64,000 bases of DNA, taken from Escherichia phage vb_EcoM-VR5. This document shows, piece by piece, positions 5,376 through 36,225 of the stretch. Where the stretch lies: sequence record NC_028881.1. One strand, 5' to 3'. The stretch's first letter is position 1; each line of letters starts with the position of its first letter. The notes under the pieces were generated by a model. The model did no database searches. It was not told where the DNA came from and was given only the letters and a program-made list of their open reading frames with translations. The translations under genes and the position numbers were made by a program.

Positions 5376-5687
5376 TTATTTACTAGCGCCATTGATAATT
5401 TCCCAAATCTGTTTACGTGTAGTTTCCCACATAACTCTAACGATTTCATCGGTAGTCGGTTGTCGGTAAATACCACGCAATTTAATTATAGCATATTTGT
5501 AAGCTTCGAAATTGTTTTCGAGAACAGCACCCTGTGCATGTTTATTAAGACGTGTAATTTCACGAGCATTCTTTTTAAGGATTTTAGCAGCCTGTGAATC
5601 GGCTTCTTTAGCATTGTTCTCTTCTAAACGCTTCTGAGCTTCTTCAATCTGCTTATCAGTCAATTGAGAAATGTCGGTGCTTTGCAT
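5376..5687 (-). CDS. hypothetical protein (charged, helical)
   Basis: 103 aa ORF in the 47-55 interval where T4 carries a-gt/47.1; no recognisable motif. Confidence 0.4.
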   Translation of the reverse strand: MQSTDISQLTDKQIEEAQKRLEENNAKEADSQAAKILKKNAREITRLNKHAQGAVLENNFEAYKYAIIKLRGIYRQPTTDEIVRVMWETTRKQIWEIINGASK

Positions 5688-5688
5688 A

Positions 5689-5916
5689 TTAATCCTTGTA
5701 ATTCAATTTTATATAAAAATCTTCGTCAGTAACGTGATAGTTATAAGTTAATGTTCCTTTTTCAGTTTTAATTTCTACCGAATCGGGGTGTTTTGGGTCT
5801 ATTACAATAGGAAGTTTGGCAATATCCTTAAGATACATTTTAAGAACATAAGGAATTGCCGAATACTCTCCATCTACTTCTTCTAAAAGGCCTACCAGGT
5901 TAATCTTGAGTTCCAT
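5689..5916 (-). CDS. hypothetical protein
   Basis: Track ORF 5689..5952 trimmed to internal ATG ([13 protein letters not shown]...); short overlap with the gene 55 stop. Confidence 0.35.
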
Positions 5917-35743: not shown

Positions 35744-35771
35744 AAAAAAGGCCCAACCTTTCGGAAGGGCC
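35744..35771 (-). terminator. terminator-like hairpin downstream of the tRNA cluster (approximate)
   Basis: RNA sense GGCCCUUCC-GAAA-GGUUGGGCC (GNRA loop, internal UU mismatches) followed by UUUUUUG. Confidence 0.45.
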
Positions 35772-35941
35772 TTTAACCTAGGGTAACCTTGTCGGGGTTC
35801 CACCTGCTAGGCAAGTGTTCGGTGCGCCGTTTCAGCTGTGATATAAGGGGGCATTAACAAAACATAAAGATTTATTAATGCCAGTCCTTAAACAGAGAAC
35901 TTCAGTCCGACGACTTACCGGTAGCGACCCGGTTTCTTGTT

Positions 35942-36017
35942 TGGTCGAGACAGTAGGGATCGAACCTACGACCTAGGACTTAGAAGGTCCTTGCTCTTCC
36001 TTCTGAGCTATGCCTCG
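35942..36017 (-). tRNA. tRNA-Arg (anticodon TCT, reads AGA); approximate coordinates
   Basis: Hand-folded: acceptor CGAGGCA/TGTCTCG, D arm GCTC/GAGC, anticodon stem AGGAC/GTCCT with loop CTTCTAA, T arm GTAGG-TTCGATC-CCTAC, encoded ACCA end. Confidence 0.75.
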
Positions 36018-36023
36018 TGTTTG

Positions 36024-36150
36024 TTCATAGCGGGGTGGACTCGAACCACCAATATTAAGTCACTCATGCTCCAAGCATGCTAGGGCACTTACCCCGGACG
36101 GAATCGAACCGCATCTACAATACCTATCGCCATGATAATTTAAAATAAGT
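36024..36150 (-). other. tRNA-like fragments / possible small stable RNA between the two tRNAs (approximate)
   Basis: Two T-arm-like motifs (RNA GGUGG-UUCGAGU-CCACC and GCGG-UUCGAUU-CCGU) only about 62-66 nt apart, plus hairpin CAUGCU-UGG-AGCAUG; no full cloverleaf could be folded by hand. Confidence 0.3.
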
Positions 36151-36151
36151 T

Positions 36152-36225
36152 TGGTGGCCCTGGGTGGAATCGAACCACCATCCAGCGATTATGAGTCGCT
36201 CGCTTGACCGTCCAGCTACAGGGCC
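36152..36225 (-). tRNA. tRNA with CAT anticodon (Met, or Ile2-type reading AUA as in T4); approximate coordinates
   Basis: Hand-folded: acceptor GGCCCTG/CAGGGCC, anticodon stem AGCGA/TCGCT with loop CTCATAA, T arm GGTGG-TTCGATT-CCACC, encoded ACCA end. Confidence 0.7.

Follow-up and report, generated by a model that had tools for sequence, protein, structure and literature searches.

Between two transfer RNA (tRNA) genes on the minus strand of Escherichia phage vb_EcoM-VR5 (sequence record NC_028881.1), tRNA(CAT) and tRNA-Arg(TCT), lies a spacer of 134 nucleotides (nt; 36018-36151), and the question raised by this locus is what that spacer encodes. In a preliminary description of the window, i.e., the whole 64,000-nt stretch of DNA that was analysed, the region 36024-36150 was seen to hold tRNA-like fragments wedged between two intact tRNAs: two T-arm-like motifs spaced too closely for two full tRNAs, and a hairpin of 6 base pairs (bp). 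These observations hold. Both flanking tRNAs are found by ARAGORN and by Rfam, the T-arm-like motifs are present at 36098-36112 and 36034-36050 with T loops that start 63 nt apart, and the hairpin, CATGC(T)-TGG-(A)GCATG with 5-6 bp, lies at 36065-36079. What had been overlooked is a 6-bp stem in which the 5′ end of the element (36128-36133) pairs with its 3′ end (36027-36032). As the ends pair, the whole stretch is one nested structure and not a set of fragments, and it is referred to here by the working name X, the tRNA-like RNA element in the spacer between tRNA-Arg(TCT) and tRNA(CAT).

X is a conserved, covarying, tRNA-shaped RNA gene of about 108 nt, encoded on the tRNA strand and so far unannotated. 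We predict that it gives rise to a stable tRNA mimic that is matured by tRNA-processing enzymes and acts in trans, a reading to which we assign a probability of roughly 0.6.

Fold, covariation and distribution of X

The whole RNA extends over 108 nt of the minus strand (36026-36133), from acceptor position 1 to a purine discriminator, the G at 36026, and is matched by its covariance model at 36023-36135 with 109-110 bits (the E-values of these searches are rough, as they come from a shortened calibration of the covariance models). In the outer part, the acceptor 5′ strand ATGGCG (36128-36133) pairs with the acceptor 3′ strand CGCTAT (36027-36032), after which no CCA is encoded. Adjoining the 5′ strand is an unpaired A at position 7 (36127), the 7:66 pair being mismatched in 27 of 28 sequences, and an unpaired C (36033) separates the 3′ strand from a canonical T arm, GGTGG-TTCGAGT-CCACC (36034-36050, 99.3% paired), which is stacked on the acceptor stem. 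Because the 6-bp stem directly adjoins this 3′ T arm, it is a tRNA acceptor stem. The discriminator is a purine, G or A, in all 18 aligned sequences, and the 3′ trailers that follow it vary among phages. The outer part of X is thus a tRNA acceptor/T minihelix, built of an acceptor stem of 6 bp and a T stem of 5 bp that carries the loop TTCGAGT, and ending in a purine discriminator.

The D and anticodon arms are replaced by an inner module of three hairpins. It is entered through a 5′ linker, TAGGTATTGTAGAT (36113-36126), in which GTAGAT is the invariant stretch; its invariant GG may be the counterpart of a D loop, with no D stem. The first hairpin, H1 (GCGG-TTCGATT-CCGT, 36098-36112), is the internal T-arm-like one, with 100% of its alignment cells paired. 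The second, H2 (GGG(G)-TAAGTG-CCC(T), 36082-36095), is short and capped, occupies the acceptor-like stem-loop position of a permuted tRNA module, and has changed on both sides in all four of its pairs. The third, H3 (CATGC-TTGGA-GCATG, 36065-36079), is also 100% paired, with changes on both sides in four of its five pairs; its loop is D-arm-like and conserved as NNGGU/A (TTGGW), and the letters GCTTGG are invariant across the T4-like clade and the clade of phage G7C. The module is left through a 3′ linker, AGTGACTTAATATT (36051-36064), in which GACTTAATA is nearly invariant and of which UAAGACUUA recurs in a distant member, L104. A further candidate helix, P2, would join GGTA (36121-36124) to TATT (36051-36054), just before the T arm; in the alignment it takes the general form GGTR with TAYT. 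Read as T, acceptor-like, D, the inner module follows the order of a circularly permuted tRNA, and X has neither an anticodon arm nor a D stem. In the distant members the first bases of the H3 loop vary (UU, AA, GC, GU) and the GG is kept, so we read H3 as a D-arm analogue and not as an anticodon arm. On this model H3 could dock on a T loop, which would give X two elbows.

This structure is carried by covariation. Given the alignment, RNAalifold recovers by itself the acceptor stem, the T arm and the hairpins H1 and H3, and the hand-specified structure gives 99% standard pair cells on alignment A3, as opposed to 42-60% when the partners are slid. Alignment A6 comprises 28 distinct sequences, including three distant members and seven metagenome copies; here 95.8% of the pair cells are standard (39-58% in slid controls), 20 of the 29 pairs are compensatory, i.e., changed on both sides, and the covariation score is 0.443 versus 0.155 in shuffles (0/500). 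P2 is 95.5% paired in A6, though it was outside the model used for fitting that alignment, and is broken in the distant members L061 and L104. Compensatory changes are present in every helix: the acceptor stem shows AU/GC/CG/UA/UG at one position, CG/GU/UA/AU/GC at the next and GC/CG at a third, H1 exchanges CG for GC and shows GU/AU/GC, the H2 stem reads GGG/CCC in the T4-like group versus GTGG/CCAC or GTAG/CTAC in the G7C group, and the second pair of the T arm varies among GC, GU, AU, CG and UA. The frequent G-U pairs, which would be A-C mismatches on the opposite strand, place X on the same strand as the tRNAs.

The phage of the window is a T4-like myophage of the genus Gaprivervirus, and the region is 93-96% identical to that of phages TH15, TH22, TH40 and VR25. 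With the spacer alone as the blastn query, X was recovered from eight further T4-like phages, which represent three genera, at 95-100% identity: the spacer copies in VR25, TH15, TH22 and TH40 are identical or 98.5% identical (100% in VR25), and copies of 95-98% identity occur in Klebsiella phage KLB31, Edwardsiella phages PEi20 and PEi26 (Kanagawavirus) and Citrobacter phage CkP1 (Karamvirus). Copies of 76-80% identity over about 90 nt occur in some 28 N4-like podophages of the genus Gamaleyavirus (G7C, EC1-UPM, pSb-1, St11Ph5, PhAPEC5/7 and others), which are otherwise unrelated to the T4-like phages, and seven further copies lie on metagenome contigs. In an 18-sequence alignment the core of X is nearly invariant and the flanks diverge. 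A host origin was considered and rejected: X was not found in 5,426 complete E. coli genomes, and contigs of one bacterial genome per species gave 13 matches to a double-T-loop pattern, none of which is X.

In the records listed X is unannotated, one "hypothetical protein" excepted, and no description of it was found in the literature searched. In VR25, whose spacer matches the window's at 100% identity, two tRNAs are all that is annotated, and no tRNA was found by tRNAscan-SE in EC1-UPM, a carrier of X (PMC3853248). In the window, the only reading frames that overlap X are spurious short ones, and neither ARAGORN at default settings nor Rfam at normal thresholds calls a tRNA in the spacer. 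The T-loop word GGTTCGANTCC has three occurrences in the 64 kb, two in X and one in tRNA(CAT), where shuffles give 0.07.

Relation to known RNAs

The preliminary description had left three options for the locus, a decayed tRNA, an unusual tRNA that had resisted folding by hand, or a small stable RNA like those of the T4 tRNA cluster, and had proposed sensitive ARAGORN and Infernal/Rfam searches to choose among them. The Rfam search returned the two flanking tRNAs and no family at X; with Rfam 15, permissive E-values give only chance scores of 8-23 bits. Sensitive ARAGORN gave no acceptable tRNA, and its relaxed calls are mutually inconsistent: a 95-nt "tRNA-???(ctag)", a "tRNA-Met with intron" and overlapping calls on both strands, none of which fits the covarying helices. 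Since the programs make no tRNA call at X at normal thresholds, and tRNAscan-SE made none in EC1-UPM, the objection that a normal tRNA had simply been misfolded by hand fails on the available evidence.

The notion of an unusual tRNA stands for part of the molecule. X shares with a canonical tRNA (RF00005) an acceptor stem set on a T arm, with 7:66 mismatched, a T loop of the form TTCGANT, a purine discriminator and a position in a tRNA operon. It differs in its length of 108 nt, in its extra internal T arm, and in having no D stem and no anticodon arm, i.e., no 5-bp stem with a 7-nt loop carrying U33 and a purine at 37; the RF00005 model finds no match in the X region even at E ≤ 10.

The T4 small stable RNAs are the best of the three options, by analogy: X likewise lies in a phage tRNA operon, beside a homologue of one of them. 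The roles of T4 RNAC (species 1) and RNAD (species 2) are still unknown (PMC3014915, PMC9697503). Both are encoded, like X, within a phage tRNA cluster on the tRNA strand, and RNAC ends in a T arm and an acceptor-like stem; it has one T arm, whereas X has two. Homology does not extend the analogy, as neither blastn (word size 7) nor the covariance models R1 and R2 show any similarity between X and T4 rnaC or rnaD, and the ACTTAATA that X has in common with rnaC, where it precedes the T arm, is too short a stretch to carry weight. By blastn with the same word size, rnaD is found in the window only at 35821-35937 and rnaC not at all. In the closest relatives VR25 (L002 582-719) and TH15 (L003 621-759), rnaC is present alongside X and is 97% identical to that of T4. 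The window phage has therefore a deletion of about 140 bp, and X is an additional RNA and not a replacement for rnaC.

The permuted order of the inner module recalls the YrlA RNAs, whose tRNA-like domain is ordered T, acceptor-like and D stem-loops, and for one of which, with an acceptor-like stem of 7 bp, cutting by RNase P and the addition of CCA are documented (Chen et al., PMC4201824). In its inner module X shares with YrlA (RF02553) this permuted order, a conserved T loop and a GG-containing D-like loop; the ends of X, however, form an acceptor stem with a second T arm and not the helix that binds Ro60/Rsr. The best score of the YrlA model is 14.5 bits, against a gathering score of 69, and falls on the 3′ T arm of X and the D arm and start of tRNA-Arg, not on the inner module. 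At the 5′ end of X in the window, GGCGAUAG is one mismatch from the Ro60 motif GNCGAAN0-1G; these bases covary as acceptor stem, and the motif is absent in the G7C clade. E. coli is not known to have an Rsr. X is not YrlA by sequence, and probably not by terminal helix.

The tRNA-like domain of transfer-messenger RNA (tmRNA) offers another parallel, as it combines an acceptor stem and a T arm with a D-loop-like GG without a D stem and has no anticodon arm, and as the place of its anticodon stem leads, like that of X, into another domain. X differs in having no tag reading frame, for which 108 nt are too short, and no pseudoknots. ARAGORN in tmRNA mode finds none at X, and the scores of the Rfam tmRNA models, which fall on the T loops, are 8-18 bits where gathering requires 47-84, and X is no tmRNA. 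The pair G3:U70, the alanine identity pair, is present in the copies of the window, KLB31, PEi20 and L023 and in the L178 and L122 types described below, is replaced by A-U in CkP1, and is C3-G70 in the G7C clade. Because the G7C clade has no G3:U70, alanine charging is unlikely to be the conserved function of X.

The operon, a proposed role and its competitors

X sits in its operon as a tRNA would, 18 nt after tRNA(CAT) (36152-36225, minus strand) and 8 nt before tRNA-Arg(TCT) (35942-36017, minus strand; gap 36018-36025), with short, AU-rich spacers on both sides. Directly 3′ of tRNA-Arg lies the homologue of T4 rnaD (35821-35937, minus strand; 85.6% identity over 118 nt), so that the order on the minus strand is tRNA(CAT)-X-tRNA-Arg-rnaD. 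A terminator-like hairpin, GGCCCTTCCGAAAGGTTGGGCC followed by TTTTTT (35744-35771, minus strand), was read from the sequence and probably marks the end of this tRNA and small-RNA operon; it is not listed by a simple terminator scan of the window, probably because of an internal stem mismatch. The T arms of tRNA(CAT) and of the 3′ end of X differ by one base, which hints that X arose partly by duplication of tRNA(CAT). The anticodon stem-loop of tRNA(CAT), GCGACUCAUAAUCGC, resembles that of tRNA-Ile2, and the homologue in KLB31 is annotated as such; tRNA-Ile2 is the lysidine-dependent reader of AUA, and it is plausible from the sequence that tRNA(CAT) reads this codon. Matches to the Rfam family "Plastid-ycf2 5′UTR" on the plus strand at 35944-36017 and 36154-36225 (22-35 bits, below the gathering score) are artefacts, antisense of the tRNAs.

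An acceptor/T-arm minihelix is the minimal substrate of RNase P. Its properties, together with the precedent of YrlA (PMC4201824), suggest how X would mature. X would be transcribed from the minus strand within the operon and its 5′ end cut by RNase P; its 3′ end would be set free by RNase P cleavage at the downstream tRNA-Arg and then trimmed by exonucleases, and CCA, none being encoded, would perhaps be added by the CCA-adding enzyme of the host. That X is a gene whose transcript is processed in some such manner we consider highly probable. The mature RNA would be a stable tRNA mimic with two elbows, one acceptor end and no anticodon. As X has kept an acceptor end and two elbows and has no anticodon, mimicry of tRNA in trans is the most economical function: X would occupy a protein or an RNA that recognises the tRNA shape, by its acceptor end, its elbow or both, independently of the anticodon. 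Candidate targets are a tRNA-directed toxin of the host, an immune effector, or an enzyme that processes or modifies tRNAs. This last part, in which X serves as a decoy, is possible but should be taken as tentative.

Several observations weigh against this interpretation. By itself the single sequence of X folds no more stably than shuffles do (z = −0.19), and in the minimum-energy fold the T arm is missing. With no CCA encoded and a mismatch at 7:66, X may be matured otherwise than tRNAs are. Within each clade there is little sequence divergence, with an effective number of 1.0-1.6, so that the independent changes behind the covariation are limited in number, and A6 was fitted to the model's own structure, which favours it. 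The enrichment of the linker GG motif is modest (12 vs 7.8 and 16 vs 11.7 expected). Among the members of the wider class that were collected from IMG/VR, the T loops are there by construction, the search pattern having required two. The gene neighbourhoods, finally, show no candidate partner protein: the neighbours are mostly unknowns, plus three endonucleases and one protein with a cREC (cyclic-phosphate processing receiver) domain, with no tRNA enzyme, Ro60 or RNA ligase among them, and no search aimed at rsr/TROVE was made. The cREC protein (L044 4589-5008, minus strand) lies 1.4 kb from an X-like element and is a single case; the domain is linked to RNA-repair systems.

The main competitor of mimicry in trans is a role in cis, in which X would be a module for processing by RNase P or RNase E, or for folding, that helps to set neighbouring RNAs free or to stabilise them, and would have no function in trans. 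The position of X in the window speaks for it, between two tRNAs and with short AU-rich spacers, as does the acceptor/T-arm minihelix, which could be cleaved by RNase P just as a tRNA-like Y RNA is (PMC4201824). In the other phages the association with tRNAs loosens. The gene before X is tRNA(CAT) in the window, KLB31 and PEi20, but in CkP1 X stands alone between two protein genes, with no tRNA nearby, and the G7C-type copies have no ARAGORN tRNA nearby or only a doubtful tRNA-Ile(AAT); a rule that ties X to tRNA(CAT) was therefore abandoned. EC1-UPM has no tRNA by tRNAscan-SE at all (PMC3853248). In addition, the conservation of the inner hairpins, of GCTTGG and of GACTTAATA goes well past the needs of a cleavage signal. 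In our judgement a role purely in cis is rather unlikely, and the case for it suffers from those copies near which no tRNA lies.

The loci outside the Gaprivervirus group show some features of their own. In G7C (L004), X lies at 1484-1600 inside a stretch of about 1.2 kb without open reading frames (966-2191) that ends at an annotated terminator and in which neither an Rfam match nor an ARAGORN tRNA is found. Other T-arm-like hairpins occur there, e.g., TTAGG-TTCAACT-CCTAA near 1434-1450, and the stretch may code for additional RNAs that have gone unrecognised. In six G7C-type genomes (L013, L018, L019, L027, L030 and L031), a "tRNA-Ile(AAT)" or "tRNA-Xle" of 75-79 nt, about 200 nt downstream of X, is called by ARAGORN and in the deposited annotations; with its odd anticodon and length, it may be another tRNA-like RNA and not a decoding tRNA. 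An ordinary tRNA-Asn fills the corresponding slot, from tRNA(CAT) to tRNA-Arg, in the Dhakavirus JS98.

It is very unlikely that X is mainly a feature of the DNA, i.e., the target or the cargo of a homing endonuclease cassette, whose RNA fold is incidental. In three independent contexts X or an X-like element has a putative endonuclease gene just upstream: a phrog_15137 endonuclease gene 33 nt upstream of X in CkP1 (L007 328-963), an HNH gene about 140 nt upstream of the X-like element in L061 (8434-9015, minus strand), and the HNH homing endonuclease gp47.1 about 700 nt upstream in G7C (L004 262-759). X also lies on opposite sides of a phrog_2290 gene in CkP1 and in the window, and segB, inside the tRNA cluster of T4, is a parallel. 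The upstream endonucleases and the changed side of phrog_2290 suggest that X travels as a small cassette. Selection that acts on a DNA target, however, would keep the sequence constant and would not yield compensatory changes in helices or G-U pairs on one strand, and mobility is compatible with an RNA function; it explains the patchy spread of X, not its conservation at the level of RNA.

A functional but highly unusual decoding tRNA, either with an intron or with H3 as anticodon arm (loop CUUGGAG, anticodon UGG), is extremely unlikely. ARAGORN can be brought to such models, as with -ps80 it gives a "tRNA-Met(cat) with a 22-nt intron" or, intronless, the 95-nt "tRNA-???(ctag)", and in the window H3 can be given a 4-bp stem and a 7-nt loop that has U33 and A37. 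The C-G pair that would have to open for this is, however, the closing pair of H3, invariant in 26 of the 26 cells with letters on both sides, so that the loop has 5 nt; in the G7C clade "position 37" is occupied by U, the variable first loop bases and the constant GG fit a D-like loop, and the tRNA searches were blank both with RF00005 at E ≤ 10 and with tRNAscan-SE in EC1-UPM. Just as hard to sustain is the preliminary suggestion that X is the functionless debris of one or two decayed tRNA genes, with which the blank default run of ARAGORN, the poor and conflicting relaxed models and the near-identity of its T arm to that of the adjacent tRNA(CAT), suggesting a duplication, would agree, but which cannot account for the 76-80% identity that T4-like and N4-like phages, though unrelated, share over about 90 nt, for compensatory changes in every helix, or for a nested pairing of the 5′ and 3′ ends that itself covaries.

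A wider class and the place of X in phage biology

Elements of similar architecture were sought in IMG/VR by scanning for two T loops spaced too closely for two tRNAs, followed by a covariance-model search of the matches. The wider class described here is tentative because the search pattern itself demanded both T loops. Among 173 unique double-T-loop regions, 51 (e.g., L091/L087) consist of a normal tRNA followed by a truncated one and were rejected as members, and in 109 neither T loop lies within an ARAGORN tRNA. A perfect 7-bp nested acceptor stem is present in 23 of these 109, compared with 3-7 in shifted controls, and several of these regions take a multi-hairpin layout from energy alone. 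The architecture of X itself is found in L061/L171, L104/L216 and L044, which score 35-45 bits with model R1, where ordinary tRNAs reach at most 29 bits. Rfam 15 gives no matches at the G7C, L061, L104 and L044 loci.

The weaker candidates are L148/L196, L122, L077, L116/L132, L178/L186/L209, L098 and L110. The H2 stem has 6-7 bp in L148, L116 and L178, and in L178 and L116 there is a full 7-bp acceptor-like stem. In L178 (5374-5485, minus strand), an X-like RNA lies 4 nt downstream of a phage tmRNA gene and carries G3:U70 in both its outer and its inner acceptor-like stems. L110 (region around 5625-5697, minus strand) holds three T-loop hairpins and three UGGUG loops within one acceptor stem. 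L122 (4679-4784, minus strand) is a nested pair of tandem tRNA units, both of which have D and T arms but no anticodon arm, a layout that suggests how the family arose. Most of these elements are located in large phage tRNA arrays.

These forms invite a broader reading, which we regard as quite unlikely in its present shape: X would be the coliphage member of a widespread class of multi-elbow tRNA mimics, acting as counter-defence decoys against host effectors that attack the acceptor ends or elbows of tRNAs, or as G3:U70 alanine-accepting mimics of the tmRNA domain. At the same low probability, one acceptor stem would enclose two or three modules of T arm and GG loop, derived from tandem tRNA units without anticodon arms. 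It is similarly improbable, as part of this broader reading, that the class is carried in phage tRNA arrays and spread by homing-endonuclease cassettes, with the G3:U70 forms able to hamper trans-translation.

For fifty years small stable RNAs such as T4 RNAC and RNAD have been known from the tRNA clusters of phages, and X would add another, by analogy. Its history illustrates how conserved tRNA-shaped genes escape both tRNA finders and genome annotation, EC1-UPM having been reported as free of tRNAs and yet carrying X. It is also favourable for study, as it has a clear fold supported by covariation, is small enough for genetics and structural work, and is present in two unrelated groups of easily grown coliphages, the VR25-type T4-like myophages and the G7C-type N4-like podophages. 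X belongs with the small RNAs of phage tRNA clusters and with the tRNA mimics, and is more than a collection of fragments. If it does act as a decoy or mimic, X would be an RNA-based addition to the tools with which phages act on the tRNA machinery of their hosts.

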